64,000 bases of DNA from Candidatus Thorarchaeota archaeon (GCA_003345595.1 PRDI01000058.1:23961-87960); one strand, 5' to 3'. Positions 3,317 through 57,728 are shown, counted from the stretch's first letter. The notes: a model not told the origin generated them from the letters alone. Program-made: numbers and translations.

Positions 3317-4120
3317 CTATCCTACTTTCTGCCCACAGTTGTTGCAGAACTTCGCCCCCGCAGGAAGAGGCTGGCCACAGTTCGAGCAGAAACCGCCGCG
3401 GCCGCCACCGCCGCCTGTAGTCTTGAATGTGATAGTTGAGCGGTCAGGCTGTCCTCCACGTCCCGATCCGGTGCTAGTGATCGTGAAAGATCCCTGTCCT
3501 TCGTCGCCGCCCCCGGTCACCGTGACTGTTTCATCCCCACTGGATCCTCTCTGCGCACCACCGCCGCCACCTCCTTGTAGAATGGCTCCACATTGAGCAC
3601 ATGAAGATCTTCCGCCTGATGGAGCGCCGCAGTATGGGCACTTGCCTTGGTCTTGGGCCGCTGAGATATTTGCTATGATCGCAGAGATCACCTTAGGCTG
3701 CTTGAACTCGAATCTCATATCTCCTCCTGACTTCAGGGGAAGTATCAGTCTGTTCCCAGACATCTGCGCCTGCGAAACCGCAACTATAGGGATGGCCATA
3801 CTCTCGGCGTTGCCTTTGGCATCCTTGTTGATGAACGAGTCGTGTGTCCATGAGGAGATGGCAGTATACACGGCTGCAGCACCAACACCGCGCCCTACAC
3901 TCTTGATTGCGTGTCCCCCAATGCCTCCCACACGTGAACCGACTCCTTCGAGCAAGGCTGCGCCAGCGACTGCGCCGGCAAAGGCACCAAACTTCTTGAG
4001 GCCTCCGCTCTTGCTGGGTTTCTTATACCAGACGAGCCTCACATCAGTCAGCTCGAGGATTCCATCTTGTCCCTCGAACTTGACATCGTCTTCACGGATC
4101 ATTTTCTTCTCATAACCCAT
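3317..4120 (-). CDS. PH/GRAM-like domain protein with Gly/Ala-rich insert and zinc-ribbon domains
   Basis: GILELTDVRLVW and MAIPIVAV resemble PH-GRAM strands. Zinc ribbons CPYCG..CAQCG and C-terminal CSNCG..FCNNCG. Start at 4120 (MGYEKK) or 4156. Confidence 0.7.
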   Translation of the reverse strand: MGYEKKMIREDDVKFEGQDGILELTDVRLVWYKKPSKSGGLKKFGAFAGAVAGAALLEGVGSRVGGIGGHAIKSVGRGVGAAAVYTAISSWTHDSFINKDAKGNAESMAIPIVAVSQAQMSGNRLILPLKSGGDMRFEFKQPKVISAIIANISAAQDQGKCPYCGAPSGGRSSCAQCGAILQGGGGGGAQRGSSGDETVTVTGGGDEGQGSFTITSTGSGRGGQPDRSTITFKTTGGGGGRGGFCSNCGQPLPAGAKFCNNCGQKVG

Positions 4121-4274
4121 GGTCGAAAGTCCAGAGTCAGAGAATGAAACGCTCATGAAACCTGGTCGCTCTGACAGATGATATCACCACAGAGGCGGTC
4201 AGTACGTAGCAATAATAAGCTTGCTAGCTGGCAGCCTCTGTCGGCCTGCAATCTTGGTGCGTGCTTGACTGACT

Positions 4275-5759
4275 TCAGTCGCCGGTTTTTTCTCTCATTG
4301 CTGGTCCGATTGCAGTTTCGGTAGGCTGAGATACTTGTGGCTGGCGTCGCACAAGAGCTTCGTCACCCGTCACTGGGAGCGGGTACTTGAGGCCTTTCGA
4401 TATCATGATCACGCCCATGAGGGATACAATCCCACAAGACACAAGGGTCAACGGGAAGCCCCAGCGTGGGATGAGCCAACCAAAGAGCGCAATCTGCGGC
4501 ATCGCTATGATTGTTCCCAAGGCAGGCTGCAACGAGTACATGCTGTTCCTGATTCGGTTGGGGATAGCGTCAATCAGGATGCGCTGAGTCAGGATTTCAG
4601 CGAACCCTCCGAAGAAGCCTGTCACTGTGAAGGTAATGAACATGAATGCTACGGGAAGTACAGTGCTTGGTGGCAGCCTCAGTATCACCAGCTGAGTGAA
4701 CGGGAAGAAGATATCGATGGTCGGCGTCCCTACGGCGGCCGGTGGAAGCAGATACATGATTGCGGCGAACAGGAGGAAGAAGACAGTTCCGCACATCTGA
4801 ACAAGCCTGAAACGCGGGATCCACTTTTTGGGCTCGAACTTCCTTGACCAAATCCCAGACCGTTCCTGGGAGGCAACCCCTGGAATGAACAACAGAGTCC
4901 TGAATAGAGCAACGGCTACGTCAGTCGCCAAATAGGCGTAGTACATGGGAAAAAGTATCAGATTTCCCCACACGAGGATGCTGCTCGCTGTGACCATCGT
5001 GCCTATCATCACATACTTCACAAACGGCTCGCTGAAGATGTAGCTGACGCCTGCCTTTAGAAGCGAGCCATATTCCCCGAACGATGGTCTCTTCTGTCGG
5101 CTGGCTTTGACCTCTGGCAAGTCCTGTACTAGAACGAGGACGGAGGCCGCTATCAAGACGCACAGAATTGCTTGCAGCTGAAAAACCCAAGATCTACCGA
5201 ACATGACCGCCATAAGAGAGCCAGGCAGAAGAGCCACAGTCGAAACAATCTGGAAGAGCATCCCGATCCTTCCCTGCATGACTCCGTACTGTTTCCTGTC
5301 CACATCGTTCGGCATGGCAACTCTGTAGTTGTTGTCAAACCAAGCTCCCCAAGCTCCGCTCTGTTGGGCATCGGCAGCGCCGTTTATTGCGTAAATGAGA
5401 ACCAAGAGCAAGTATGGCGTAGTAACGTTGACCAGTGAAACAAGGTAGAACGTCAGGCCGTATAGCGCGAATGAGAGTGAGATGATGTATCTCTGGCCGA
5501 TCCAGTCTCCCACTGCTCCTGTCGGATAGTCGAGCACTGTCTGTACGGCCATCTGTATCACGATCAACGTCCCGATGAGAGCCATTCCTTGGATGTAGTC
5601 CCCTCCGCCCAAAGCTGTCGCTATGAAGATGACATAGAATGTTGTCGAGAAGGTGACAGTTGCTGCAATCAGAGGGAGGAAGATGGACATGACTCTGGCC
5701 ATTCTCAATATTGAGTCAGGTGCATCTCTTAGTCCAAAGAACCTCGAGTTGCCGGTCAT
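4275..5759 (-). CDS. MFS transporter
   Basis: About 12 hydrophobic segments; motif-A-like DYPTGAVGDWIGQR. Confidence 0.85.
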   Translation of the reverse strand: MTGNSRFFGLRDAPDSILRMARVMSIFLPLIAATVTFSTTFYVIFIATALGGGDYIQGMALIGTLIVIQMAVQTVLDYPTGAVGDWIGQRYIISLSFALYGLTFYLVSLVNVTTPYLLLVLIYAINGAADAQQSGAWGAWFDNNYRVAMPNDVDRKQYGVMQGRIGMLFQIVSTVALLPGSLMAVMFGRSWVFQLQAILCVLIAASVLVLVQDLPEVKASRQKRPSFGEYGSLLKAGVSYIFSEPFVKYVMIGTMVTASSILVWGNLILFPMYYAYLATDVAVALFRTLLFIPGVASQERSGIWSRKFEPKKWIPRFRLVQMCGTVFFLLFAAIMYLLPPAAVGTPTIDIFFPFTQLVILRLPPSTVLPVAFMFITFTVTGFFGGFAEILTQRILIDAIPNRIRNSMYSLQPALGTIIAMPQIALFGWLIPRWGFPLTLVSCGIVSLMGVIMISKGLKYPLPVTGDEALVRRQPQVSQPTETAIGPAMREKTGD

Positions 5760-6634
5760 TCTGTATTCAGTCCCCCAATCATGCTTCGGAAGGCCGAGTC
5801 ATGCTGCAAGAACCGTGAATCAAAGCGTGCCAGTTTCGCATGTGTCATCATTCAGGTGTTCTCCTAGTTCGACTTCGCGATCTCTCGGGGTGCGGCCCCC
5901 GCAATCACACTGCAGGGACCGCTGCTGAGAGAGTAGGTATGTTTAGCCGTCCATCGGTTACCATGGTTGTCGAGAGGCTCTGCTTCTTGCCGAGTGTCAG
6001 GGCTTCCAGCGGTTTCATCGAACCGGTCAGCCGGGAATCGGAAGAGTGCGCCGAGTCTACTCAACCATGTCACCTTGTTTTGGTTTGGACTGGTCACTTG
6101 ATATGCTACTGATGGTCTACAGTGCTCATTCAAGTGACCACTTGTGGTCACTCTAATACAAGTCGTGTGGTCAAGGTGACCTGCTGAAGAGGCTGGCTCG
6201 CCTTTGCGCCCCACGCGGTAGTTGTTGGAACAAACCATGCTCACTGCTTCGTTGTTCACAGCCTCTACCTCATGGTGGCATAATGGTTTGGTGCTGACAC
6301 CATTTAAATACTACACTGTTGACGCAATAAACCATTGATGATGGGACCTTCGCACACAGGTGCACATCCAACGGACTAGGATTGACGAACTGAAGGTGAG
6401 ATACCTGCTGAGTCCTTGCGTCGGGAATACTTAACGATAAAGCGACACCGTAGCCTTTCACAAGAATTTCATCATTGGTACCAATAAAAAGCGCAGCCAC
6501 ATCATGGGGTCACGTGTTGAGGTCGCTTCATGTTACCGGTCACGCAGGCAGGGGTGTAGGTGTGCGACAGTCAAAGATATTACGAAGCTGATTCAGAACC
6601 TGCAGTATCAACTAACGACAGGAGACAGGTCAGG

Positions 6635-7516
6635 ATGGATATCAAGAAGATTGCCGTGCTTGGCGCAGGCCAGATGGGCAACGGTATAGCTCATGTCTGT
6701 GCTCAGTCAGGCTATGAAGTCAAGATGCGAGATATAGAGCAACAGTTCCTCGACAAGGGCCTTGCAACGATAAAGGGAAACCTAGACCGCATGCTGAAGA
6801 AGAGCAAGATTACTCAGGTGGACGCGGATGCAACATTGCGTCGCATAAAGTGCGTTCTCGACCTTAAGGAGGCCGTGAAGGACGCTGATCTGGTCATTGA
6901 GGCGATTCCCGAAATAGTCAAGCTGAAGTTGGACACTTGGAAGGACGTGGACGCTGCCGCCCCTGCCAGCGCCATATTGGCGTCGAACACTTCGAGCATC
7001 AGTATCACCCAAATGGCGGCTGTAACAAAGCGGCCTCAGAAGTTCATAGGCATGCACTTCTTCAACCCAGTGCCTGTCATGGGACTTGTTGAAATCATTA
7101 AAGGGCAAGCCACCGACGACGCAACTGTCGATGTGATAAAGGCTGTCGCGACTAAGGTCGGCAAGCAGACAGTCGTTGTTAAGGAAGCGCCAGGGTTCGC
7201 AGTCAATCGATTGCTGGTGCCCGCTTTGAATGAGGCTGTCTTTGCGATTCAGGAAGGCATCACGACAGTTGAAGACATGGACCTAGCCATCAAGCTCGGG
7301 TTGAACTGGCCAATGGGTCCGCTGACACTTCTTGACTTCGTGGGTCTAGACACGGCATTGTACATCGCCGATTATTTCGTGGACGAGTTCAAGGACAGCA
7401 AGTACAGGGCACCTGCCTTGTTGCGCAAGATGGTGCGTGCAGGATGGCTGGGCAGGAAGTCCGGAAGGGGCTTCTATGACTACTCAACCAATCCTCCCAA
7501 GCCGGGTAGGTTCTAA
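6635..7516 (+). CDS. hbd: 3-hydroxybutyryl/3-hydroxyacyl-CoA dehydrogenase
   Basis: GAGQMGNGIA, VIEAIPE, LASNTSSISI, GMHFFNP, PGFAVNRL, PMGPLTLLDFVGLD and GRKSGRGFYDY. Start MDIKK at 6635. Confidence 0.93.
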   Translation: MDIKKIAVLGAGQMGNGIAHVCAQSGYEVKMRDIEQQFLDKGLATIKGNLDRMLKKSKITQVDADATLRRIKCVLDLKEAVKDADLVIEAIPEIVKLKLDTWKDVDAAAPASAILASNTSSISITQMAAVTKRPQKFIGMHFFNPVPVMGLVEIIKGQATDDATVDVIKAVATKVGKQTVVVKEAPGFAVNRLLVPALNEAVFAIQEGITTVEDMDLAIKLGLNWPMGPLTLLDFVGLDTALYIADYFVDEFKDSKYRAPALLRKMVRAGWLGRKSGRGFYDYSTNPPKPGRF

Positions 7517-7537
7517 GAGTAATCTGGGGCGGCCAAG

Positions 7538-7993
7538 CTAGCGAGGTTCGCCCCTCCTAGCTCCAGCTGGAGTTGAAGCTCTGGATACTTGCGGCTGTTT
7601 CTCTTCACTTACTCGAACTTCAATCATATGCTGACACACATGACATATGAACTCATCAGAACTTGTCCATTGTATATCCTCCGGGGTAATTGGTTCACTG
7701 CAATAAGACCAAATCACGAAGGAAGATTTTGATCTAGTTCTCGAACGCGCTTGGGAATCAATGTCTTTCCCACCTGCTCCATCAATCCCATCCCTTCTAG
7801 GCTGACATTGGCGCCTCATGAGAATCAGCAACACAAGTAGCTACATTCCCAACATGACACGCCAAAGCACGAAAAACGGTTGCAGTAGAGGTATCATTCA
7901 GACAGCGGAGAGGATTGGAAACACAAGGAGCAATACGAGAGTCAATGCAACGATCACCGAATCAACTGTCTTGCTTCCTGCTTGCTCTCCCAA
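7538..7993 (-). pseudogene. Interrupted 2-TM membrane protein with degenerate C-terminal zinc finger
   Basis: One frame from TTG 7993 (after GGTGA) reads hydrophobic helices broken by in-frame TGA (7900-7898) and TAG (7843-7841). It continues into track ORF 7538..7834 (WSYCSEPI...CHVC). Confidence 0.55.
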
Positions 7994-8141
7994 CTCACCT
8001 AACTGAAGACCCTTTCATTCGAAACGTAATAGGCCTGCGTTCTTCTGTTTTGTCTATTCATGCACAACCGTCATGAAACAGAATTGAACACTTGCACACA
8101 TCCATCGTGAAAGGTGTTAGACACTGCGACAGATGTCTGTT

Positions 8142-11100
8142 TCATTTCGTGAGCTCTTCTTCTCTGAGCTTCTTCTTGAAGAGTTTCATTGCCACAGTCA
8201 GAGGCAGCTCATCTCTGAATTCTACCCATTTTGGCACGGCATATGGCTTCACTCTCTCCTTCAGGTATTCGATGATATCCTGCTCTGAAACTTTACCTCT
8301 ATATTCAGGTTTCAGCTGGACAAAAGCCTTCACCCTTTCACTTCCAGGTCTTTCAGAATCAGGAACCCCTATCACACCTGCAACATCGACGGCTTCGTGT
8401 GTGTGAAGGATGTCATCAATGACCCTACTGTACACCTTGTTACCCGAAACATTGATCATGTCTTTTAGCCGGTCTACTATTCTGAAGTAGCCGTCACTAT
8501 CCATCTCGACAATATCGCCCATAGGCAACCATCCGCCCTCTCTTAGTCCACTTCCAGGAGTTGGGAAGTACCCCTTCATGACCTGCGGTCCACGGATCCA
8601 GATTTCTCCTCGCTCGTTAAGCGGAAGCTCTTTTCCAGTTTCGGGATCGACGATTTTGACCTCTGTATCAGGTATGGGAATGCCGATGCCCCTCTTTGTT
8701 TCGGTCATGAAACCAGTGACCTTCGAGAGCGCTGACACGTTGATTGTTACGATTGCTGATGACTCTGTTGCGCCATAGCCTTCGCCCATGGGCACTCCCG
8801 TCTTCTTCTCAAACTCCGCAGCAAGATCGGCAGGGAGTGCCGCTGCACCTGAGTAATAGAATATCTGTCCCTTCTTCAGGTCCATCTTGCTCAGCATTGT
8901 ATAGTGAGCTGGGACTGCGAATACAACGAAAGGACGTTGCTTGTTGATTATATCTGCAATCCTCGAGATGTCACGCGGGTCAACCAGGAATATCTTCATA
9001 CCCCATGACACGCATGCATGCACGGCCCAATGGCCGTACGCGTGGAAGATGGGCACACATATCAGACCTGCGCTCTTTCCGATGATTCCCTCCTTCAGAG
9101 GGTCCATCATCCATTGAATTGACTGTATGACGGCACTTGTCAGATTGTAGTGTGTCAACAAGGTCCCTTTTGGAAGCCCTGTGGTGCCTCCCGTGAAGGG
9201 CAGCAGGGCGATATCCTCCTTCGGGTAGATTTCGACAACACCTTCATGCGGCTCGTGCTGTTCTATCAAATCATTGAGAAGGAAGTAGTTGTCATCATCA
9301 ATCTGCTCTGTGTCAGGATATTCATAGTCTGGGAATACCCTTGTAGGGGTGTAGATAACGATTCTCACGCTCGTTTCGGGTTTGACTCGATTGATTCTTT
9401 CAAGACGTCTGGATGAGCATACCACGATCTCAGCTCTACTCTCTTTGAGTTCATACAGCAAATCGTCGTCCTTGTGCATAATGCTTAGAGGTACATGAAT
9501 CGCTCCAATCTTCATTGCTGCATAGTCAGCTATTATGAATTCAGGACATGATGGAAGTACAGTGGCAATTGCGTCCCCCTTCTTCACACCAAGGGCTACG
9601 AAAGCTGATGCAAGCTTGTCAACCTTCATTTTCAGCTCATGATATGTCAAATGCTCATCCAAGTACTCACATGCTTCAATATCAGGGAAATTCGTTGCAG
9701 AGTCCTCTAGAAACTTGTAGACATTTATCTCAGGATACGGAGCCATCGAATGCTTGAGTTTGAAAGGACCAATTTGGTAGCCACTCAACCACGGCTTGTC
9801 ACCAAAGATTTCTGCCGATGTTCTAGATACTGCTGATGCCATCTCCTTTTCAGAAGTAGCCATCTGTTTTGTTTGTGCCCCCGTAGTTCCTCTCCCAAGA
9901 TCCCCATATTCAGGGATCGAATCAGCAACCCATGCAAGATCAAGTTCCTTTAGTTTTTCTCTCGAGGGTCTTCCTTGATGATCCCATCCGCGATACTTGT
10001 AGTATGCATCTAGGAGAACATCCAGTTTCACAACATGCCCCTTCGCTGGCCCTTCGGGCATTGGATCCTCTAGTAGTCGCGGAGGTAGACTGTCATCTCT
10101 TCGTCCAAACCCCTCCCTCAAAATGTATGCCCTCTCCAGGTTATAGATTCTCTCACCTGTCTTGCGAAAGTCATCTGCAGAGAACTCATAGCCCATCAGT
10201 GTGGAAATCAGTTTCGCCCAGTCTTCGGCAGTGAGCACCATCCCCATGAACTTGCAGCCACCAATGGCGTCAAAGATGCCGAATGCATCCTCGAAGTTCT
10301 TGACGACTAATGCTATCTCTGGGATTTCCATTAGTGGATCGCCCACATCCGCATTCTCAACGATCATGAAAGGCATGGAGAGAAAAGCAGGTCCCTCAAT
10401 ATACGCTGTTATGTGATCTCCGCCTCGATTCGCAACAGCATAGGCAAGTCCCGTTATCTTGGCCGCTCTGCTGTCATAACCCGGGAGCTCTAGTCCCTTC
10501 ACATGCATCGCGAATCTCTCAGACCCATTACCTAGTTTCTCAGCCATCCTCATGGTCCCTTCAGCAAGGAGATTCCCTATTCCCTCACGTTTTCCAATCT
10601 TGTGAACAATGTCAACGATAAGTTGCGCATTTCCCCAGGAGAAGTCCATGCCACCAATGTCGTCGTCTTTCAGGATGCCGCGTTGTCTGCATTCCATGGC
10701 AAAGCCAACGCTATTGCCCGCAGAGATTGTGTCAATGCCATACTCATTGCACAGGAAGTGCGCGAGGGTGATGGCTTCTAGGCTGTCCACACCGCACATA
10801 GTCCCAAATGAGCTAATAGTTTCGTATTCCGGGCCCTCTCCCTTGCTCTTGAAAGGTCCCTCCTTGATTTCGGCAATCCTCCCGCAATGGATGGGACAAG
10901 CAAAGCAGGGCTTTCGTCTTACTAGGATGCTATCATTGATTGCCTGCCCGTTGATTTTTTCTGCGTTCTCAAAAACGCCGGTCTGCCAGTTTCTGGTCGG
11001 GATGCCTCCCTTGACATTGACCAGGTCAACCATTGTAGCTGTGCCATAAACCTCTAGGGTCATCTTCAGAAGGCTTTGATTCACCCAGTCGAACCTTTGC

Positions 11101-11777
11101 TTTGCCTCCTGTCTGTATGCGTCTGGGTCTGCAATGGCGATTTCCAGAGTCCCCTTTGATGCTATTGCCTTCAGATTCTTTGAGCCCATGACCGCGCCAA
11201 CGCCGCACCGTCCCGCTGCGCGACCCCAGTTCTCCTCATCGCAGTCGTTCATGATTGCAGCGTACTTTACCAGATTCTCCCCTGCGATACCTATGCAAGC
11301 GACATTGAATTTGGGTCCGTGCCTCTCTCTGAGGATTCTAGTGGTTTCGGAGGTGTTCTTTCCCCATATCTTCCCTGCATCGAACAGCTCCGCCTTTCCA
11401 TCTTCAGTGAGGAGGTAGACCGGACTTGGCGCTCTTCCTTCGAATATTGCACCATCAAAGCCGGAGCGTTTGAAATCTCTCCCCCAGAATCCTGCGGAAT
11501 TTGCCTGGCCCCATCCATTCGTGAGGGGTGACTTTGTTACCACACTGTATCGTCCTGTGCTGGGCGAACTGGTGCCTGTAAGAGGGCCGGTCATGAAGAT
11601 GAGCTTGTTCTCAGGACCAAGGGGGTCAATGCCTTTTTCAGTTTCCTCAAGTAGGATCTTGGTAGCTAGTCCGGCACCACCGAGGTATTTTCGTAAGGTT
11701 TCTTCATCAGGGAATTCCTCCGTTATTGTAGATGTAGTCAGATTGATGCGCAGGATCTTTCCCATGTAGCCATACAT
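8142..11777 (-). CDS. Fused aldehyde:ferredoxin oxidoreductase (AOR, W/Mo-pterin) and AMP-forming long-chain acyl-CoA ligase
   Basis: N-terminal ~620 aa: GRAAGRCGVGAVMGSKNLKA, CFACPIHC, GPEYET, YGIDTIS, RGGDH, DAIGGC. C-terminal ~570 aa: FTGGTTGLPKG, EGYGATE, GWLPMGD, VDRLKDMINVSG, LPLTVAMK. Confidence 0.9.
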   Translation of the reverse strand: MYGYMGKILRINLTTSTITEEFPDEETLRKYLGGAGLATKILLEETEKGIDPLGPENKLIFMTGPLTGTSSPSTGRYSVVTKSPLTNGWGQANSAGFWGRDFKRSGFDGAIFEGRAPSPVYLLTEDGKAELFDAGKIWGKNTSETTRILRERHGPKFNVACIGIAGENLVKYAAIMNDCDEENWGRAAGRCGVGAVMGSKNLKAIASKGTLEIAIADPDAYRQEAKQRFDWVNQSLLKMTLEVYGTATMVDLVNVKGGIPTRNWQTGVFENAEKINGQAINDSILVRRKPCFACPIHCGRIAEIKEGPFKSKGEGPEYETISSFGTMCGVDSLEAITLAHFLCNEYGIDTISAGNSVGFAMECRQRGILKDDDIGGMDFSWGNAQLIVDIVHKIGKREGIGNLLAEGTMRMAEKLGNGSERFAMHVKGLELPGYDSRAAKITGLAYAVANRGGDHITAYIEGPAFLSMPFMIVENADVGDPLMEIPEIALVVKNFEDAFGIFDAIGGCKFMGMVLTAEDWAKLISTLMGYEFSADDFRKTGERIYNLERAYILREGFGRRDDSLPPRLLEDPMPEGPAKGHVVKLDVLLDAYYKYRGWDHQGRPSREKLKELDLAWVADSIPEYGDLGRGTTGAQTKQMATSEKEMASAVSRTSAEIFGDKPWLSGYQIGPFKLKHSMAPYPEINVYKFLEDSATNFPDIEACEYLDEHLTYHELKMKVDKLASAFVALGVKKGDAIATVLPSCPEFIIADYAAMKIGAIHVPLSIMHKDDDLLYELKESRAEIVVCSSRRLERINRVKPETSVRIVIYTPTRVFPDYEYPDTEQIDDDNYFLLNDLIEQHEPHEGVVEIYPKEDIALLPFTGGTTGLPKGTLLTHYNLTSAVIQSIQWMMDPLKEGIIGKSAGLICVPIFHAYGHWAVHACVSWGMKIFLVDPRDISRIADIINKQRPFVVFAVPAHYTMLSKMDLKKGQIFYYSGAAALPADLAAEFEKKTGVPMGEGYGATESSAIVTINVSALSKVTGFMTETKRGIGIPIPDTEVKIVDPETGKELPLNERGEIWIRGPQVMKGYFPTPGSGLREGGWLPMGDIVEMDSDGYFRIVDRLKDMINVSGNKVYSRVIDDILHTHEAVDVAGVIGVPDSERPGSERVKAFVQLKPEYRGKVSEQDIIEYLKERVKPYAVPKWVEFRDELPLTVAMKLFKKKLREEELTK

Positions 11778-11818
11778 GATGAAGTGGACCTCTTGCTATC
11801 TACGAAACGGGGTCATGC

Positions 11819-11830
11819 GCTTTTAAAAGC
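11819..11830. promoter_or_regulatory. Palindromic TATA-like element (GCTTTTAAAAGC) between divergent AOR-ligase and moaD-like genes
   Basis: Perfect 12-bp palindrome near the middle of an 85-bp divergent intergenic region. Confidence 0.6.
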
Positions 11831-11862
11831 CTGATGTTCATCAAGGCGGGTGAGGCGCCCGG

Positions 11863-12147
11863 ATGAAGGTGAAAGTGAAATTCTTCGCGCATCTCAGTGA
11901 GCTCACAGGTAAGAAACCAGTATTCGAGGTCGATGTTGAGGAGGGCGCCACCGTTTCCATGCTCTTGGACAGTCTACTCGTCGACCGGAGGATCAGGGAT
12001 GCCCTGCTGGACGAGAACCAAGAGATCAGGTCCAATATAACTGTCCTCAAGAATGGCAGAGAGATAAAACTCCTGGCGGGAATGGAAACCAAGCTGAGTC
12101 ATGGTGACGAGCTAGCTGTGTTTCCCATGCTTGTCGGAGGTCGATAA
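11863..12147 (+). CDS. MoaD/SAMP ubiquitin-like (beta-grasp) protein
   Basis: MKVKVKFFAHL...VLKNGREI...LSHGDELAVFPMLVGGR, divergent from an AOR gene. Confidence 0.88.
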   Translation: MKVKVKFFAHLSELTGKKPVFEVDVEEGATVSMLLDSLLVDRRIRDALLDENQEIRSNITVLKNGREIKLLAGMETKLSHGDELAVFPMLVGGR

Positions 12148-12262
12148 GTGGTGCATCGAATACCCTAGACCCCTTCAAGCTCAATTTATCAGTAGGACAT
12201 TCCTGTTACAAGAGCATTCAATCGAATTACGATGACCAGTGCTATTCGAAGGATTGATCACT

Positions 12263-12712
12263 ATGCCGAGATTCATGTCAGCTGAATGGCTGAATCTATA
12301 CAAGAATGCGCTCAACAGCAACGATGCCTATGCAAGGGCTGCTTCGTGGTGGACTGGCGACTTCATTTTCGTTGTCAGGGCAAGCGGCAAGTTGGACCAT
12401 GATATTTTTGCTTTCATCGGGTTGACTCACGGTAAGTGCACCGGTGTGAAGCCAATAAAGGGAGAAGACGAATACCAAGTTGTGAAACCTGGTGAGGGTG
12501 CGAGCAGTAAGGACAAGGTTGCCGTAGAGTATGTCTATGAGGCCAAGTATGATGCTTGGCTGAGAATCCTGAGAGGCGAGTTGGATCCTGTCCGCGGGCT
12601 TCTCAGCGGCCAAGCAAGAATCGTTGGAGATATGGCCAAGATTCTCAAGGCTACGGACGCTGCGAAGGAGCTAGTACGAACATCCACCCTGATCGACACG
12701 GAATTCTACTAA
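12263..12712 (+). CDS. SCP2 sterol/lipid-binding domain protein
   Basis: FMSAEW..Y...LN....Y...A..W.GDF and YDAWLRILRGELDPVRGLLSGQARIVGDMAKIL, a typical SCP2 pattern. Start ATG 12263. Confidence 0.8.
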   Translation: MPRFMSAEWLNLYKNALNSNDAYARAASWWTGDFIFVVRASGKLDHDIFAFIGLTHGKCTGVKPIKGEDEYQVVKPGEGASSKDKVAVEYVYEAKYDAWLRILRGELDPVRGLLSGQARIVGDMAKILKATDAAKELVRTSTLIDTEFY

Positions 12713-12732
12713 AGACAACAAGGTGAAGTGTA

Positions 12733-13143
12733 ATGGATGAAGCAGCGCGGGAAATCCTCTTCCATACATTCAAGGCCGTAATAGAAGATGTCATTGCTGA
12801 CAAGCGGAAGAATCCCAAGAACACCACGACTCTTGACGAATATCGAGCCAGGATAAACATAGGTCTGCATGTGGAAGAGGAATTCATATTGTGGGTGAAT
12901 CTTGTTGCTGAAGGCGGCAAGTATGTCGTCAACAAAGGAAAGCTTGATGACTACGATCTACAACTCATATCAGACCCCGAGGATATGATGTACTTCACTA
13001 ACAGGAAATACTCAACGCTGAAGATGATGTTCACAAAGAACAGATTCGGAGAGAGAAGGCTGCTTTTCAGTGGAGGAACGTCTGGCAGAAACTACGGGAA
13101 ACTGTTGAAGCTCCCCAAGGTGCTAGTCTTGGATGGCAAATAG
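12733..13143 (+). CDS. Hypothetical protein, probable SCP2-like fold
   Basis: Beta-rich core followed by YDLQLISDPEDMMYF...LKMMF...RLLFSG...KLLKL, resembling an SCP2 C-terminus. RBS GGTGA; co-oriented with the SCP2 gene. Confidence 0.55.
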   Translation: MDEAAREILFHTFKAVIEDVIADKRKNPKNTTTLDEYRARINIGLHVEEEFILWVNLVAEGGKYVVNKGKLDDYDLQLISDPEDMMYFTNRKYSTLKMMFTKNRFGERRLLFSGGTSGRNYGKLLKLPKVLVLDGK

Positions 13144-13345
13144 GTGAAAAAGCCCTGTATAGAACCATAAACCCTCATAATGAGTAGTTGATTCGGCTGC
13201 AGGAGTTCTTGGAACCAACTCTGACTATCGCTGTGAGAACGACGTTTAGTTGGACGTGATGGGCCGACAAAACACAATACTAGGTGTCGAATACGAGAGT
13301 TGCATGCAAGAGTACTGGAGATTCTCATGCTAACACACGGCATTC

Positions 13346-13590
13346 ATGGGAAGGTGGGGGACCTGTGGGCACATGCACAATGCTCACGTCAGGAACTGTT
13401 TACCTGCCGACGTGTCTGTCAGACTCCTGAAGAAGATGGGAGCGGACATCACGTTCGTCTGCGGATCAGACACTCATGTTACTCTTCTCCTGACTGTAAC
13501 AGAGGCCGCTGGTGTTAGTCACAGAGAACTCTATGTAGAGTACCACGAGCACTACCTGGAGATCGTAGCCAGTTTCCCAATCTTAATAGC
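13346..13590 (+). pseudogene. metG: Degenerate N-terminal fragment of methionyl-tRNA synthetase
   Basis: GHMHNAHVRNCLPADVSVRLLKKMGADITFVCGSDTHVT...GVSHRELYVEYHEHY matches the MetRS HIGH/ADxxxR/GSDxHG region with decayed motifs. Only about 80 codons. Confidence 0.75.
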
Positions 13591-13622
13591 AGTGTTGCAT
13601 CATGTCCGGTCATGTGGTGCAG

Positions 13623-14465
13623 ATGAGGTACGAAGAGAGCAGCTACACAGGATACGATGGCATGCAGATGTTCATGTCGGTATGGACTCCCGACGACGAA
13701 CGGCCCCGTGCTCTCATGGTAGCTATTCACGGGCTTGGAAGTCATGGGTCTGCTCTGACTAACGTCGGCGTCTATCTCAGTGAGCGGGGCATTGCAGTGT
13801 TCGCCCCTGACATGAGGGGCTTTGGTCACTATTCGGGACTGAAGGGGCACGTGATGAACTTCGATGAATACATCGAGGACATCGATAGCGTGGTGACTCA
13901 GGTCAAGATGATGCACCCGTCCAAGCTGACCTTCCTGTTTGGCCACTCGCTGGGGGGTCTTGAAGCGATAAGATATGTCACTACGTATCCCGGCGATGTC
14001 GATGGTCTGATTCTATCCTGCCCTGCGGTTTCTGAACATGTCGAGATCGGGAAGGCAACCAGAGTGGCGGGCTCATTCCTTTCACTACTAAACATTAAGC
14101 GATACTTCGGCTGGCCTACCCAGTTCCAGTACGCCTCACATGACCCAGACGTCGTTCAGGAGCATGAGAACGACGTGCTTAGGTTTGACAAGGTGACACC
14201 CCGACTTGGAATGTCTGCACTGAAAGCTACCCGCAAAGCGTTCGAGTCTGCATCCGGAATAGTGCTCCCAGTCCTTGTGCAGCAGGCGGGTGACGATGTC
14301 TTCGTTATACCTGAGAAGACCAAGTTGTTCTTCGACAGCATTGGTGGATGTGACAAGAGCTGGAAATTGTATGAGGGTCTCTATCACGAACTTCACAATG
14401 AAAATGCGAGGGAGCAGGTACTTGGCGACATGTACGCATGGCTTGAGAAGCGCCTGACGGGATAG
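13623..14465 (+). CDS. Alpha/beta hydrolase, lysophospholipase/monoacylglycerol lipase family
   Basis: HGLGSH, DMRGFG, GHSLGG nucleophile, AGDDVFV and YHELHNE. Start 13623 or 13602. Confidence 0.88.
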   Translation: MRYEESSYTGYDGMQMFMSVWTPDDERPRALMVAIHGLGSHGSALTNVGVYLSERGIAVFAPDMRGFGHYSGLKGHVMNFDEYIEDIDSVVTQVKMMHPSKLTFLFGHSLGGLEAIRYVTTYPGDVDGLILSCPAVSEHVEIGKATRVAGSFLSLLNIKRYFGWPTQFQYASHDPDVVQEHENDVLRFDKVTPRLGMSALKATRKAFESASGIVLPVLVQQAGDDVFVIPEKTKLFFDSIGGCDKSWKLYEGLYHELHNENAREQVLGDMYAWLEKRLTG

Positions 14466-14522
14466 TGAGAAATGGGATCCGAAGGTTTTGACAATCTAGT
14501 TCGGTCCAAAGAAAGGACGGCT

Positions 14523-17276
14523 CTAGCCTCTGCCGACCATGACCGGACGACTGTCATTCATGAATCCTTGTCTTCTCATGACGAGCTTTATGGCTTCTAT
14601 TGAAAGGAAGGTAAACGCGCAGACACCAAAGACTACTTCCACGCCAAGCAACCCGATTGGCACTAGTCCGAATGCGTTGGCTACAGCTGGGATGCTGAAC
14701 AGCCCTATGGTGAGGGCTGCATTCCCAAATACGGCCAGCCATAGCAGACGGTGCGGCCTCACTTCGAATACTGATCGCCTCAAGGAACGACATGTGATTG
14801 CCATCACAAGTTCAATGAATACGAACAAGTAGAAGAGCACACTTCTCGCTTCAAGCAACTGAGGGCTGTTCTCCGGCGTGCCCAAGGGCACCATACTGGC
14901 GAAGATAAACAGGAAGAGAGGGCTTTGGACCAGAACGGAGATCAGATAGAACAGCTTCATATCCTTTGTGAATATGCTCTCCTTGGGACTTCTTGGAGGT
15001 CTTTCCATTATGTCGGGGTCTGCCGGGCTCAACCCAAGAGCGATTGCAGGGAATCCATCGGTGACGAGGTTTATGTAGAGAAGCTGAGCCGGCTCCAGCG
15101 GAAGCGGGTACCCCGCTAATATGGCAACTGAGAGCACTATAATCTCAATCAGATTTGTCTGCAGTAGATATGCAAGGTACTTCTTGATGTTGTCGTAGAT
15201 CCACCTTCCTAACTCAATGGCCTTTTCGATTGTTGCGAAGTTGTCATCTGCAAGTACGAGGTCGGCAGCCTCTTTCGTGACATCGGTCCCTGTGATTCCC
15301 ATGGCAATACCGATGTCTGCCTGTTTTAGAGCTGGAGCGTCATTGACGCCATCGCCGGTCATCGCCACGACCTTTCCACGCTTCTTCCATGCTTTTACGA
15401 TCTTCAGTTTGCGTATCGGCGAAACCCGCGCATAAACGGAAACATCCTCGACGATCTGTTCAAAGTCTTGATCGTCGATGCGCTCCATATCAGAATCCGT
15501 TAGGAACTTGTCACCCTCATTATAGATGCCAACTTCGCGTGCTATGGCCACAGCAGTCAAAGCATGATCGCCAGTTATCATGATGGGCCTGATTCCCACA
15601 GATTTGCATACACTAATCGCCTTGACAGCTTCGGCGCGGGGCGGATCTATCATGCCAGCCAAACCCAGAAAGACTAGGTCCTTCTCAAGTGTTTCTTCAC
15701 TCGAGTCATCGATCTGCGGCCCCTCTCGGTATGCCACAGCCAAGACTCTCAAGGCGCGCCTTGCCATCATCTCATTGGCTTGCAAGATTCTGCCTCTGGA
15801 ATCGCTTCCCATGTCTTGAATTCCGCCAGATGCAAATTCCTTGGTGCAACGGTCAAGCACAACCTCCGGTGCTCCCTTGACGAAGACAAGCTTGCCGCCC
15901 TTCTCGCTATAATGCATTGTTGTCATGCGTTTTCTCTCGGAGCTGAAGGGAACCTCCCCTATCCTGGGGAAGGCACTTCTGATTTCGTGCACTTTGTGCC
16001 CAGACTTCTCGGCGAGAACAATCAATGCTCCCTCTGTCGGGTCTCCCCTGATTCTCCATTTTCCATTCTCAATGACGAGGTCTGCATCATTGCACAGAAC
16101 GCATCCCATGACAAACAACCTGAAACTATCACTGTTCAGGACACCGTCCGGGGCCAGAAGTCTGCCTGTGGGCTCATACCCTTCGCCCTCGACCGCCACC
16201 GTCGAGTCTGCAGCGTAAACCTCTCTAACAGTCATTTCTCCTTTCGTGATTGTCCCTGTCTTGTCAGAGCAGATGACAGTGGTGCACCCTAGGGTTTCCA
16301 CAGCTGACATTCTGCGTACGAGCGCATTGGCATGCGCCATTCTATGCATACCTATTGCGAGACTTCCCGTCACGACTGCCGGCAGTGCTTCAGGAACGGC
16401 TGCCACTGCAAGAGCTATTCCGAAGAGTATCATTTCGAGGGCAAAGGCCGGACGGAACAGGCCGTACACTATGAAGTCCCTAAGTAGTCCCACGGCTATT
16501 ACTGCAACGCATACACCCAGCGAGAGTGCACCAAGCCACTTGCCAATCTCCTTAGTCCGTTTCTCAAGAGGTGTTTCCTCTTTGTCCACGGTTGTTACTT
16601 GGCGCGCGATCTTGCCAAATTCAGTATTCATCCCAGTGGCAGTTACTACAGCAAGTCCCTTCCCATATGTCACTTCCGTGCCTGAAAGAACCAGATTCTT
16701 CCTGTCAGGGAGGGGGGTGTCAGGCTCAATCGTCTCTTCAGTCTTGGATACGGGCAACGACTCGCCAGTGATTGCTGCCTCGTTCACCTTGATGTTACAG
16801 ACCTCAATGAGGCGCCCGTCCGCAGGAATCTTGTCCCCCTCTTTGAGCATGAGGATGTCACCAGGCACAACCTCCTTGGTAGGCACCTCGAGTGCTTGAT
16901 TGTCACGTAGGACTGTTGTGCAAGGTGTAAGCATCTTCTGCAGTGCCAAGAGAGCCCTCTCCGCCCTGTATTCTTGCGTGAAGCCCAAGATTGCAGAGAT
17001 GATAACGATCACCAGAATCAGTAAAGCATCTACGATCTCGCCGACAAGAAACGAGATCCCAACCGCAATGAGAAGTATGACAACGAGAGTTTCGGTGAAC
17101 TGTCTGAGAAGTATCCTTAAGGGGCTCTCAGTTTCGGCTCTCATTAGCTCGTTTGGTCCATACTCTTGCAGTCTTTCAATAGCATCAGCGCGACCAAGAC
17201 CTGCCCGGCTCGTACTCAGCTTCATCAAGACGGTCTGTGAATCTTGAGAGTGCCAAGCCTCTTCCGTTGATGTCAT
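14523..17276 (-). CDS. Type II (Ca2+-transporting-like) P-type ATPase
   Basis: [38 protein letters not shown] and INLVTDG. Confidence 0.93.
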
Positions 17277-17554
17277 TGCCTCTCACCGGGCCGGCAGCGC
17301 GACGTCGGTCACCATGTGGCTTGCCTTGACATTCGAGCGACCCGACCCTAATGGATCCGGGTGATGTCAAGACGTAGACTTATGGCCGAATGTTGCCAGA
17401 CGCAGCCTACGGGTTGTCGTGCTGGCACCTGAGCCGACAAACAGACGAGATAACTGTTTCGTCAGCGGTACTTCTGGGAGATAGTATCCTATGTCGAAAG
17501 CATTAAGACCACACTGCGGTTAGTGCTCTGCAGAACACCCGGAAGCACAACACC

Positions 17555-18166
17555 ATGTCTGAGAAGCCCAAGTACAGCTTCAAGTGTCTGGAGAATGAAT
17601 GTCCACAGCGAGCCTGCTGTACACGCGAACCGGTGACTGTGACTCTAGGCGACATTGTTCGATGGAATGAGCAAGATTACCTGTCTCACATTGTTCCCGG
17701 AGTGGTCATTCAGATGCCTGAATCAGATACGGATGCTTTGATACTTGTGACGGCGCGACGCCAACTGAAGAAAGACGCGAGCAAGACTGCGTGCGTCTTC
17801 TATCACGAGGAGTCAAATGCCTGTTCAATCAGATATGCTCGCCCAATCTCTTGCAGGACATTTCCTCTTCAGTTCGCAGGTGAAAATTTCGTTCTCAGCA
17901 ACAAAGAGTGTTCTGGCATCGGGAAGGGCGAAGTCGCACGCGACGCCCTGAAAGAAGCCAGAAACACTGCGGAACTCGAGTTCAAAGAGCGACTGGAAAC
18001 GGAGAAGACATTGCCCGGCCTCTACACCGTATTCATGAGCCTCATGTTGCGTCAATCAGCCGAAGCCATGAAGGATCTCTCTGATGAAGATAGGAAACGC
18101 ATTGACGAGATAATGTCTCGCAGGTCTTCGAGCGAAGAGGGTCAAGGCGCTGAGAGCGGCGACTAG
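17555..18166 (+). CDS. YkgJ/UPF0153 cysteine-cluster protein
   Basis: C..C....CC, CVFY, CSIRYARPISCRTFP and CSGIGKG. Confidence 0.8.
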   Translation: MSEKPKYSFKCLENECPQRACCTREPVTVTLGDIVRWNEQDYLSHIVPGVVIQMPESDTDALILVTARRQLKKDASKTACVFYHEESNACSIRYARPISCRTFPLQFAGENFVLSNKECSGIGKGEVARDALKEARNTAELEFKERLETEKTLPGLYTVFMSLMLRQSAEAMKDLSDEDRKRIDEIMSRRSSSEEGQGAESGD

Positions 18167-55934: not shown

Positions 55935-57728
55935 CTAGAATCCCTTGAACACCGCATCGATGTCTGCGTCTGTGACATCGAAAGTGACGTTGTGCGGCGG
56001 GAGTTTCTCAGTGCGGAAGAACTCAGGCAACCTGTCGTCGCGTTCAGTGAACCCTGCTCTCTGGTTGAAGCCGCGTTCGGCTTTCAGCACGGCCGTTCCG
56101 TACTCTGTGACATCAATCTTCTTGCCGAGGAAGGAATCAACAGTGTCAGTCATGGCCTTGAAGCCTGCGTCATCGTCCAGAACGCAGAATGCAACGAAGA
56201 GGCAGTATCCGCTGGAGTCGAGATAGGCAGTCGTAGATTGGAAGGCGCGTGAGAGGTCGGCCTTCTTGAGGTCTCTTGGATCAGTGACCTTGCCCTTGAT
56301 GCCGAGTATCTCAGCCGCTATGGTGTAGCCTGAGGTGTGGTCTGCTCCCATTGGGTTGGTCGCGTAGGTCACACCAATACCACGGATTGGTCTTGGGTCG
56401 TATGCAGGTAAGGACTGTCCCTTGACAACTGGAATCCGGGTGACTCCTAGCGCATGCCCAGTGGTTGACGCTCCTGAGCACACCAGCCTGCCAAGGTAGG
56501 ACTTCGGGTTGTACGCCTCCTTCAGAGCAGCAATAGCTGCCGGGCCATCACCGAACTTGATCATTCCAGCCTCCATGAGCATGGCCAGAGTGTTGCCGGT
56601 TTCAATCGTGTCCACTCCGAGGTCGTTGCAGAGCCTGTTGAGCTCGGCGACGTCTTTGAGGACGCTGATGCCCAGGTTAGTACCCAGAGCCCATACGGTC
56701 TCATATTCGAGGGGCGAAACCTGCAGTTTGCCTGTGTCTTCGTAGGGTACTGCGTTGGAGCATGCCATGACACAGCCAGGGTGACAGGCGTGACCATACG
56801 TGCCTTGTGCCTTGTCTCCATGCTTCGCCCTTGTCCTGTCAACAAGCTCATGAACCGCTTCTCCCGAGATCTTAGCTGCTCCTTCAAAGCGTCCTTCGTG
56901 GAAGGCTCTGGTTGGAAGGCCACCGGCTTCGTTCAGAATGTTCTGGAGCACATTCGTCCCGTAGTTCTTTAGGGCACCGAATGGCTTCCCCTTATCGTCC
57001 TTGAGTTTGCCTGTGATGGGGTGAGCGTCTAGTGACTTCACGAACGTCTTGCGCGCGGCGTCAAATCTGTCGTTCTCTTTGGCTGCAGGGACGGCACCAC
57101 CAGTGTCGTCACTCACAATGGCGACAACGTGTTTCGAGCCAAGCACCGCACCCAACCCGCCTCGGCCCGCGTACCTACCAGCATCCGTGTTCTCCACGTT
57201 ATTGCCAAAGACACCCGCAGCTTTCTGAAGGCGTTGGCCAGCAAGACCACAACCAATGATGCCTGGTTTCGATGGATACTCCTTCCAGATTCTGGCTATC
57301 AGGTCGTAGGTTCCGAGTCCAGCGTATTCGTTCTTCTTGACGATCTCGCACTTGTCCTTCCCGACAAGGAGGGTGTACCAGTCCTTGCTCGCTGCGGGGG
57401 GCGCGCCTTCAAGTATGAGACCCCGTACCCCGATGCGGGCGAGCCTGGTTCCAGTGAGTCCGCCAGCGTTAGCTTCTTTGATGCCGCTGGTCAGAGGGGA
57501 CTTTGCTCCTACGCTCACTCTACCAGACGAGGGTGCGTATGTTCCAGCAAGTAGACCCGGTGACACCACGAACTTGTTCCGTTCACGGAGCGGATGACAC
57601 ATGGGATCGACTTCGGTCGAAACAATATGTGAGGTGAAAGCTCTACCAGCCAGATGCTCCTGCTCTGGCTTGAGCTTCTCCCACTTGAATGTCAGGTCAG
57701 TCATGTTGACCCTTAGAACCTTGCTCAT
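55935..57728 (-). CDS. Aldehyde:ferredoxin oxidoreductase family protein
   Basis: KSPLT, AGRGGLGAVLGSK, CHPGCVMAC, LEYET, LGVDTIE, GADHT and DSSGYCLF. Confidence 0.92.
   Translation of the reverse strand: MSKVLRVNMTDLTFKWEKLKPEQEHLAGRAFTSHIVSTEVDPMCHPLRERNKFVVSPGLLAGTYAPSSGRVSVGAKSPLTSGIKEANAGGLTGTRLARIGVRGLILEGAPPAASKDWYTLLVGKDKCEIVKKNEYAGLGTYDLIARIWKEYPSKPGIIGCGLAGQRLQKAAGVFGNNVENTDAGRYAGRGGLGAVLGSKHVVAIVSDDTGGAVPAAKENDRFDAARKTFVKSLDAHPITGKLKDDKGKPFGALKNYGTNVLQNILNEAGGLPTRAFHEGRFEGAAKISGEAVHELVDRTRAKHGDKAQGTYGHACHPGCVMACSNAVPYEDTGKLQVSPLEYETVWALGTNLGISVLKDVAELNRLCNDLGVDTIETGNTLAMLMEAGMIKFGDGPAAIAALKEAYNPKSYLGRLVCSGASTTGHALGVTRIPVVKGQSLPAYDPRPIRGIGVTYATNPMGADHTSGYTIAAEILGIKGKVTDPRDLKKADLSRAFQSTTAYLDSSGYCLFVAFCVLDDDAGFKAMTDTVDSFLGKKIDVTEYGTAVLKAERGFNQRAGFTERDDRLPEFFRTEKLPPHNVTFDVTDADIDAVFKGF

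Follow-up and report, generated by a model that had tools for sequence, protein, structure and literature searches.

What does an aldehyde oxidoreductase fused to an acyl-CoA ligase do in an Asgard archaeon, and which of the genes around it belong to the same pathway? The question is raised by an 8-kb stretch (positions 6635-14465) of a 64,000-nucleotide piece of DNA, here called the window, from a Candidatus Thorarchaeota archaeon (GCA_003345595.1, PRDI01000058.1:23961-87960). The names on close relatives place the source in Thorarchaeota, a member of the Asgard group. The stretch encodes a single protein that joins an aldehyde:ferredoxin oxidoreductase (AOR) to an acyl-CoA ligase, a MoaD-like protein, two proteins of the SCP2 fold (SCP2a and SCP2b) and, at its two ends, a 3-hydroxyacyl-CoA dehydrogenase (hbd) and a lipase-type hydrolase. 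A preliminary description had taken all of these for one lipid-scavenging module. Comparison with related genomes yields a smaller unit than the 8 kb: the conserved core consists of the AOR-ligase pair, SCP2a, SCP2b and the MoaD/SAMP1-like gene, and hbd and the hydrolase are chance neighbours in this genome. With a probability of roughly 55%, the core is a divergent pair of transcription units for the conversion of a hydrophobic alcohol or aldehyde to the acid, with reduction of ferredoxin, and then to acyl-CoA, in which the SCP2 proteins serve as carriers.

Two samples of loci define the unit. For the first, the 20-kb contexts of 22 related loci were taken and all open reading frames (ORFs) were clustered with those of the window, giving 23 loci. 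The second was collected from the SCP2a side and comprises 80 loci from species-representative genomes. Both answer the check proposed in the preliminary description, the co-occurrence of AOR, ligase and SCP2 genes in other genomes: AOR, ligase, SCP2a, SCP2b and the MoaD-like gene cluster across Asgard classes. The sole families that recur in the 23 loci are AOR/ligase (23), SCP2a (22), the MoaD-like gene (15) and SCP2b (13), which makes SCP2a, adjoining in 22 of 23, the most faithful companion of the AOR-ligase pair. From the SCP2a side, an AOR orthologue lies within 6 kb in 39 of 80 loci, and SCP2b is found in 39 of 80. The order and strand of the genes vary by lineage, and the gene set is kept. 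The arrangement in Thorarchaeota is SCP2b←SCP2a←MoaD followed by →fusion, some Thorarchaeota have SCP2b→SCP2a→AOR→ligase, and Promethearchaeota-labelled genomes have AOR→ligase→SCP2a. An iron alcohol dehydrogenase is encoded in or beside the cluster in five of the 23 loci, and in seven of the 80 seen from SCP2a. Genes for electron-transfer subunits of the AorA or AorC type were absent from the cluster in the 23-locus clustering.

Had the entire 8 kb evolved as a lipid-scavenging unit, the lipase would release the chains, the SCP2 proteins would carry them, the AOR-ligase would make acyl-CoA and Hbd would start beta-oxidation. All six genes named for it are present within the 8 kb, and their coordinates and identities are correct as judged from Pfam and NCBIfam, from solved structures matched by sequence, and from AlphaFold models searched against solved structures, the means of family identification used here. 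The hbd product passes NCBIfam model NF004474 with 409.9 bits (cut-off 408), and its best solved relatives are clostridial 3-hydroxybutyryl-CoA dehydrogenases (1e-93). The hydrolase matches Hydrolase_4 (8e-61), has a GHSLG nucleophile elbow at residue 114 and finds its best solved relatives in mycobacterial monoacylglycerol lipases (3e-38); by its sequence it is a member of the monoacylglycerol lipase/lysophospholipase family, with its substrate a prediction. Synteny, however, contradicts their inclusion. The hbd gene lies beside the cluster in none of the 22 and none of the 80 related loci. The hydrolase does so in one of the 22, as a 31%-identical homologue on the other side of the cluster, and in none of the 80. 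The pattern holds even in genomes that are 88-91% identical in the fusion; beyond SCP2b, the 91%-identical relative has a gene for an MFS transporter.

The two ends of the stretch tell the same story. Between SCP2b and the hydrolase is a spacer of 460 bp, which holds a decayed piece of a methionyl-tRNA synthetase (MetRS) gene. The piece matches tRNA-synt_1g (E = 5e-11) at profile positions 12-84 of 391 only, and metG PRK00133 at 9e-12, and it partly overlaps an ORF listed at 13346-13762. No second copy of the fragment was matched in this 83%-complete genome, or in the related loci. It is probably a pseudogene remnant, a rearrangement scar that marks the edge of the cluster. At the opposite end, hbd is convergent with the fusion at a distance of 625 bp, and its product is most like the short-chain clostridial Hbd enzymes. 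It is one of three paralogues, the other two of which lie with enoyl-CoA hydratase genes on contigs C76 and C129, and the other beta-oxidation genes of the genome are on other contigs. The genome has five acyl-CoA dehydrogenases, four enoyl-CoA hydratases and three 3-hydroxyacyl-CoA dehydrogenases, which could take up the acyl-CoA product. It can also be reasoned that a monoacylglycerol lipase frees an acid, not an aldehyde, and would thus bypass the AOR step. A functional unit extending over the full 8 kb is accordingly very unlikely.

Within the core, the pairing of AOR and ligase is best documented. The same fusion architecture is found in about 45 protein clusters from NCBI, JGI, ENA and Logan at 62-91% identity, whole or cut by contig ends, and about 35 of these are full-length with all four domains; the fusion is therefore not an assembly artefact. 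Among the Asgard genomes searched, the one-frame form is confined to Thorarchaeota and a few genomes labelled Hod. Many Promethearchaeota-labelled genomes, Hod-type genomes and some Thorarchaeota have the split form, in which the AOR and ligase genes are adjacent on the same strand; orthologue identities are 66-76% for AOR and 58-72% for the ligase. In the split forms the AOR ends with IDQIY and a stop codon, and the ligase starts from a few to about 30 codons further on. In metagenome-assembled genomes (MAGs) of Deltaproteobacteria and in one other locus, L055, the stop codon of the AOR gene and the start codon of the ligase gene overlap. No AOR-ligase fusion outside Thorarchaeota and Hod was present among the best 150 of 1.84 billion representatives, which is a rough bound only, because the representative of the cluster that holds the fusion itself is evidently a non-fused protein.

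The fusion appears to have formed more than once. The linker of the fused forms occupies the place of the short intergenic spacer of the split forms, and the linkers of the Thorarchaeota and Hod fusions are unrelated in sequence. In the AOR tree the AORs linked to ligase and SCP2 make up one clade (SH-aLRT 99), apart from the ten other AOR paralogues of this genome, which has 11 in all. The fused Hod forms fall inside the split Hod forms, and the fused Thorarchaeota forms are a separate clade. Taken with the unrelated linkers, this placement indicates that AOR and ligase were fused at least twice, once in Thorarchaeota and once in Hod. At two Thorarchaeota loci (L041 and L042, in G364 and G342) a lone in-frame stop codon lies between AOR and ligase, about ten codons before the ligase start, and one point mutation could thus switch such junctions between split and fused. 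In every lineage AOR comes before the ligase, in gene order and domain order alike. This matches the order of the reactions, since by the established enzymology of AORs and ANL enzymes the product of the former is the substrate of the latter. Because the pair is kept together, fused or split, the two enzymes very probably act in sequence, and the repeated fusion is gene-level evidence for it.

The cluster is also found outside the Asgard archaea. AORs of this clade are at most 47% identical to other AORs, except for orthologues in Deltaproteobacteria MAGs, the nearest non-Asgard AORs, at 60%. In the gene order there, GMC-family oxidoreductase→190-aa protein→AOR→ligase, the second product is orthologous to SCP2a (hhalign 99.5%, E = 4e-23) and keeps a His-Gly-x-Cys motif; the locus also has a ThiS-family gene. 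The degree of AOR identity suggests an exchange between anaerobes of the two domains; as to its direction, the AOR tree has a trifurcation. Locus L055 has SCP2→AOR→ligase (ligase 44% identity), with a molybdopterin oxidoreductase, a CoA-transferase and a MaoC-like hydratase as neighbours. In the Deltaproteobacteria MAG loci (L059-L063) a cytochrome c3/c7-type gene and genes for DUF4139 proteins come after the cluster.

The preliminary description had named two SCP2 carriers, and the SCP2 fold is confidently modelled in both proteins. An ORF for SCP2a was listed from a GTG at 12239; database relatives are 149 aa long and start at the ATG at 12263. Its AF2 model (pLDDT 90.6) finds its best Foldseek match in Thermus thermophilus SCP2 (2cx7; TM-score 0.74/0.89, E = 2e-11, 27% identity), with eukaryotic SCP2s, UbiJ and alkylsulfatase SCP2 domains among the further matches. 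Foldseek gave 26 matches at E ≤ 1e-3, each of them an SCP2 protein or an SCP2-like domain. Against Pfam PF02036 the window protein scores 16.8 bits (cut-off 21.3), and 22 of 22 orthologues match at E ≤ 1, the best at 4e-8. The SCP2b model (AF2, pLDDT 85.8) has only SCP2 proteins as its top Foldseek matches (TM-score 0.5-0.6), and the ten best by VIA-align are likewise all SCP2 (Z 9-11.5), including human SCP2 (2c0l_B, Z 11.5, root-mean-square deviation 3.3 Å over 116 residues). At the sequence level SCP2b of the window has no Pfam match and six of 13 relatives have a weak one; similarity between SCP2b and SCP2a was not detectable in sequence (hhalign probability 0.2%). On the strength of the models both have the lipid-carrier fold of SCP2, and lipid binding is predicted.

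SCP2a has residues that are invariant in the Asgard and Deltaproteobacteria orthologues (E8, Y23, W30, G32, H56, G57, C59 and W99), among them those of a His-Gly-x-Cys hairpin, GLTHGKCTG in the window protein. The 80 SCP2a loci split into a His-type and a Lys-type (KGDC) group. In the former 37 are linked to AOR-ligase and 10 are not, and for eight of these 10 the contig is too short on one or both sides to decide; in the latter 33 are unlinked and two linked. The Lys-type genes of Promethearchaeota-labelled genomes (L099-L143, for example L105 63-10786) sit in a strongly conserved block, with phenylalanyl-tRNA synthetase (PheRS) beta, PheRS alpha, a cytidylyltransferase and a 145-aa protein to one side, then DUF1512 and SCP2, and then a CBS protein, a zinc-ribbon protein and a HAD hydrolase. 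In sister Promethearchaeota-labelled genomes the same neighbourhood has DUF1512 and SCP2a parted by an inserted AOR-ligase pair.

It could be argued from these genomes, where SCP2a keeps its housekeeping neighbours (PheRS alpha/beta, DUF1512) with or without AOR-ligase, that the SCP2 genes are syntenic passengers held in place by common descent, with no functional tie to the pair. Yet their adjacency survives the changes of order and strand in Thorarchaeota, Hod and Promethearchaeota-labelled genomes, and it recurs in the Deltaproteobacteria MAGs and L055, where the flanks are wholly different. We regard passengers as a highly improbable explanation. The matching of the His signature with adjacency (37 linked with His, 33 unlinked without) was also considered as a test of co-evolution and set aside; adjacency changes once, leaving one independent pair. 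A complex prediction for the AOR domain with SCP2a gave a score of 0.02, which is under the mark and, having been run without controls, is uninformative on binding either way. An SCP2a domain fused to AOR, alcohol dehydrogenase or ligase was absent from the 8000 candidates scored, which is weak evidence.

A third SCP2 paralogue in the genome is the last gene of what looks like an operon (L054 3878-7068, contig C26), in which stop and start codons overlap and the order is thiamine pyrophosphate (TPP)-dependent enzyme→Zn-alcohol dehydrogenase→SCP2; here too an SCP2 protein is paired with alcohol/aldehyde chemistry. Identification of the TPP enzyme as a 2-hydroxyacyl-CoA lyase was considered and set aside, as its similarity is only of a generic, acetolactate-synthase-like kind, below the NCBIfam cut-offs. 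Just upstream (L054 2822-3754) is a gene for an arrestin-like protein (Arrestin_N 9e-18, Arrestin_C 4e-14), a domain of eukaryote-signature type.

Both halves of the fusion look active, with catalytic residues intact. Its Pfam domains are AFOR_N (residues 6-210), AFOR_C (237-614), AMP-binding (690-1071) and AMP-binding_C (1120-1195). The first two match far over their cut-offs (E = 5e-77 and 4e-138). The AOR half is about 50% identical to the Pyrococcus furiosus AOR, 1aor, over 615 residues (E = 6e-164), and among solved structures it is nearer by sequence to this enzyme than to FOR, WOR5 or BamB. It is thus placed in the AOR-proper clade as a single-subunit W/Mo-pterin aldehyde:ferredoxin oxidoreductase, cofactor and activity being predicted. 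The Fe-S cysteines C291, C294, C298 and C508, in CFACPIHC (291-298) and GGCKF, align with P. furiosus C288, C291, C295 and C494, and the [4Fe-4S] Cys ligands are invariant in an alignment of 24 AOR orthologues. Likewise conserved are a Glu (EGPEYE at 314), an RGDH-type His (455) and the Asp/Arg positions for pterin binding. In 1aor numbering the aligned, conserved residues are Glu313, His448, Asp338, Asp489 and Arg76; we take Glu313 and His448 to be active-site residues and Asp338 and Asp489, together with Arg76, to be the pterin-binding positions. The window has a second, far more divergent gene of the AOR family at 55998-56978 (-) (AFOR_C E = 1e-67, 599-aa frame). Many archaeal proteins of about 810-840 aa, some of them labelled Methanomethylicaceae, Nezhaarchaeales, Hodarchaeales or Thermoprotei, combine AOR domains with domains of the hexulose-phosphate-synthase/OMP-decarboxylase type; this fusion, distinct from that with the ligase, may connect the ribulose monophosphate pathway with the handling of formaldehyde.

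The ligase half (AMP-binding 2e-83, AMP-binding_C 2e-13) has the ANL motifs A3 (TGGTTGLPKG, 862), A5 (GYGATE, 1000), GWLPMGD (1082), A8 (DRLKD, 1102) and the A10 lysine (K1198). Its best solved relative is Archaeoglobus fulgidus FadD-1 (3g7s, 3e-60), and its nearest solved relatives are CoA ligases. The best NCBIfam matches are long-chain-fatty-acid--CoA ligase subfamilies, all under cut-off. Since aromatic-type ligases come close behind FadD-1, an aromatic or other acid is a possible substrate. The same cluster might then act on an aromatic or amino-acid-derived aldehyde, such as phenylacetaldehyde, an aldehyde of the cinnamyl or coniferyl type, or indoleacetaldehyde. The ligase would re-activate the acid for benzoyl-CoA or phenylpropanoid routes, and the SCP2 proteins would bind small hydrophobic compounds or the acyl-CoA product. 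Feruloyl-CoA synthetase and the 4-coumarate-CoA ligases follow FadD-1 at 1e-55 to 1e-50, and GMC oxidoreductases, such as the one in the Deltaproteobacteria loci, include aryl-alcohol enzymes. The P. furiosus AOR, to which the AOR domain is closest, is a broad-spectrum enzyme for amino-acid-derived aldehydes (PMC8163825). On the other hand, the pair retains two SCP2-fold companions across domains, the solved relatives that were found for these all bind lipid, sterol or isoprenoid, and the best matches of the ligase in both NCBIfam and PDB are long-chain fatty acid ligases. An aromatic substrate is thus unlikely, though it deserves to be kept in view.

The same enzymes might also run in reverse. 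In a ferredoxin-driven reduction of carboxylic acids, serving as an electron sink or supplying building blocks for waxes or ether lipids, the ligase would convert a fatty acid to an activated form (acyl-AMP, acyl-CoA or a thioester with the SCP2a Cys), the AOR would form the aldehyde and an alcohol dehydrogenase the alcohol. Carboxylic acid reductases are a precedent for coupling adenylation to reduction, the alcohol dehydrogenases of the cluster work either way, and the invariant His-Gly-x-Cys of SCP2a could hold an acyl or hemithioacetal adduct. In acetogens and Thermoanaerobacter AORs do reduce acids (PMC7828175, PMC4973070). Against this direction, the ligase keeps its full C-terminal domain and A10 lysine, with CoA ligases as its solved relatives; AOR precedes ligase in every lineage; and the SCP2a Cys is also kept in the subfamily without AOR-ligase. 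To our knowledge no AOR reduces an adenylate or a thioester, and reductive operation seems quite unlikely.

A related and decidedly unlikely scheme would make SCP2a a covalent carrier, its His-Gly-x-Cys holding an aldehyde hemithioacetal or an acyl thioester that is relayed between alcohol dehydrogenase, AOR and ligase. If such a relay existed it could be the missing alcohol/aldehyde-to-acyl-CoA step of the alkane-oxidising archaea and, run backwards, a tungsten-dependent counterpart of the carboxylic acid reductases.

The place of the MoaD-like gene in the unit is partly as first described. It is linked with the core in 15 of 23 loci; it is, at the same time, a general feature of AOR loci and not specific to a lipid pathway. 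The protein matches ThiS (1e-10), NCBIfam SAMP1 (77.2 bits, cut-off 60) and moaD_arch (63 bits, cut-off 49.5). The C-terminal Gly-Gly is invariant in 15 orthologues, and the window protein has one extra Arg after it, so that processing would be needed. MoaD-like genes adjoin other AORs as well, among them an unrelated AOR at 47% identity, and a second such gene of this genome lies between two AOR paralogues on contig C16. In Aromatoleum aromaticum, the MoaD-like aorD and aorE have been proposed as maturation factors for the tungsten cofactor (PMC6365974). Because such genes are common beside AORs, the protein is read as a helper in cofactor maturation, not as a pathway-specific part, a role that its recurrent adjacency to AORs suggests.

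The preferred sequence, from hydrophobic aldehyde to acid to acyl-CoA, is drawn from the constant gene order, the two fusions, the two unrelated families of alcohol dehydrogenase and the two SCP2-fold proteins; which way it runs, that its substrate is hydrophobic, that the SCP2 proteins act as carriers and any channelling between the domains are what we infer. The aldehyde would be taken up as such or, in some lineages, be made from an alcohol by the cluster-encoded alcohol dehydrogenase of the iron or GMC type. Being poorly soluble, it would be held in the hydrophobic tunnel of SCP2a, SCP2b or both and handed to the AOR domain, where the W/Mo-pterin and [4Fe-4S] centre would oxidize it to the free acid and reduce ferredoxin. 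The C-terminal ANL ligase domain would adenylate the acid and form acyl-CoA, which would enter the beta-oxidation enzymes encoded elsewhere in the genome, and the MoaD-like protein would serve maturation of the pterin cofactor in the manner proposed for aorD and aorE. What survives of the lipid-module idea is therefore the core cluster, the fused or split pair and the SCP2 folds, without hbd, the hydrolase or a lipid-specific MoaD. A fatty, isoprenoid or ether-derived nature of the chain, and a part in breaking down lipid necromass, as that description suggested, are conjecture.

Several observations weigh against this scheme. An AOR can work in both directions, and acetogens reduce acids with theirs. 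In similarity the ligase is nearly as close to feruloyl- and 4-coumarate-CoA ligases as to FadD-type enzymes, and it passes no NCBIfam cut-off. The SCP2a family persists without AOR-ligase, and in five Lys-type genomes no AOR or ligase exceeds 42% identity, so that the tie of SCP2a to the pair is not an exclusive one. On the SCP2a tree, the association of the His signature with AOR-ligase adjacency comes down to one split and is without statistical weight. The cluster is also patchy: an orthologue-level match is present in about 111 of 400 Asgard species genomes. The matches come from only about 40 of the 86 genomes of the window's own family, from 18 of the 22 in that with Hod-labelled loci, from 52 of the 135 in the Promethearchaeota-labelled (Loki-type) family and from one genome elsewhere.

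Each component has relatives among known systems. The P. furiosus AOR (1AOR) shares both Pfam domains, the four Fe-S cysteines and the Glu, His, Asp and Arg around the pterin; the Asgard AOR differs in being fused to, or translationally coupled with, a ligase, in its tie to SCP2 genes and in forming its own clade. Like A. fulgidus FadD-1 (3G7S) and other ANL CoA ligases, the ligase has full N- and C-terminal ANL domains and the core motifs, but here it is the C-terminal half of an AOR fusion, and its position under the NCBIfam cut-offs leaves the chain length unreadable from sequence. T. thermophilus SCP2 (TTHA0401, 2CX7/1WFR) is the best structural match of SCP2a, which is set apart by its invariant His-Gly-x-Cys hairpin and its fixed AOR-ligase partner. 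UbiJ and UbiT, small SCP2 proteins encoded with the enzymes of ubiquinone biosynthesis, probably present a very hydrophobic substrate to them. UbiJ is among the fold matches of SCP2a and SCP2b; UbiJ/UbiT (6H6O) nevertheless belong to an unrelated pathway, and the similarity is at the level of the fold only.

One parallel in chemistry is eukaryotic. Fatty alcohols and phytol are converted by an alcohol dehydrogenase, the fatty aldehyde dehydrogenase ALDH3A2 and a long-chain acyl-CoA synthetase, with SCP2 as acyl-CoA carrier, the same chemical steps and type of carrier as envisaged for the cluster. In the cluster, however, the aldehyde step would use an oxygen-sensitive pterin enzyme and reduce ferredoxin in place of NAD+, and the proteins are non-homologous except for the ligase and SCP2 folds. 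The AorABC system of Aromatoleum also has MoaD-like genes encoded with AOR, but it has three subunits, is NAD-linked and is without ligase or SCP2.

In the open-access literature, which was the part searched, there was no paper on an AOR-ligase fusion or an AOR-SCP2 linkage. New here are the exclusion of hbd and the lipase, the edge marked by the MetRS fragment, the Deltaproteobacteria version of the cluster with its GMC oxidoreductase, and the split of SCP2a into His- and Lys-types with its invariant His-Gly-x-Cys. For alkane-oxidising archaea, AOR together with FadD has been proposed, without proof, as the route from alkyl-CoM or long-chain alcohols to acyl-CoA (PMC10811742, PMC10322722), and a natural fusion with carriers of its own would be a convenient object for testing this chemistry. 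Genome papers usually lump the AOR paralogues of Asgard archaea together as generic aldehyde detoxifiers; the context of this AOR predicts a pathway, one that would yield low-potential ferredoxin besides acyl-CoA. If the proposal is true, a tungsten enzyme would for the first time have SCP2-fold proteins assigned to it.

Table 1. Features of the 8-kb stretch, in coordinates of the window.
Feature	Position	Strand	Basis or remark
hbd, 3-hydroxybutyryl/acyl-CoA dehydrogenase, 293 aa	6635-7516	+	Convergent with fusion; 3HCDH_N E = 6e-65
AOR-acyl-CoA ligase fusion, 1211 aa	8142-11777	-	One unbroken frame, four Pfam domains
Acyl-CoA ligase domain of fusion, residues ~661-1211	8142-9797	-	ANL superfamily, FadD-like
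Low-complexity linker, ~40 aa, AOR to ligase	9798-9917	-	Junction translations
AOR domain of fusion, residues 1 to ~620	9918-11777	-	AFOR_N + AFOR_C
Divergent intergenic region, 85 bp	11778-11862		Between fusion and MoaD-SCP2a-SCP2b genes; sequence reading
MoaD/SAMP1-like beta-grasp sulfur-carrier protein, 94 aa	11863-12147	+	ThiS, SAMP1 matches
SCP2a, SCP2-fold protein, 149 aa	12263-12712	+	Structure model; Pfam SCP2 in relatives
SCP2b, SCP2-fold protein, 136 aa	12733-13143	+	Structure model
MetRS N-terminal fragment, decayed	13367-13585	+	tRNA-synt_1g, metG PRK00133
Monoacylglycerol-lipase-type alpha/beta hydrolase, 287 aa	13602-14465	+	Hydrolase_4

Little else in the vicinity calls for comment. 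A 98-aa ORF at 7538-7834 (-) was taken as non-coding, as it belongs to no family and has no relatives in any locus, and an Rfam scan of 4000-18000 gave no RNA family. A few kb from the cluster is a gene for a P2-type cation ATPase (14523-17276, -), which has a counterpart of 42% identity at one Hod locus (L002 11668-14061) and at no other; with a single other locus, its membership of the cluster was dismissed as probable coincidence. Reading of the 85-bp divergent region shows a TTTAAAA box, rich in A/T, some 35 bp ahead of the MoaD start; as a promoter element it is a candidate only.

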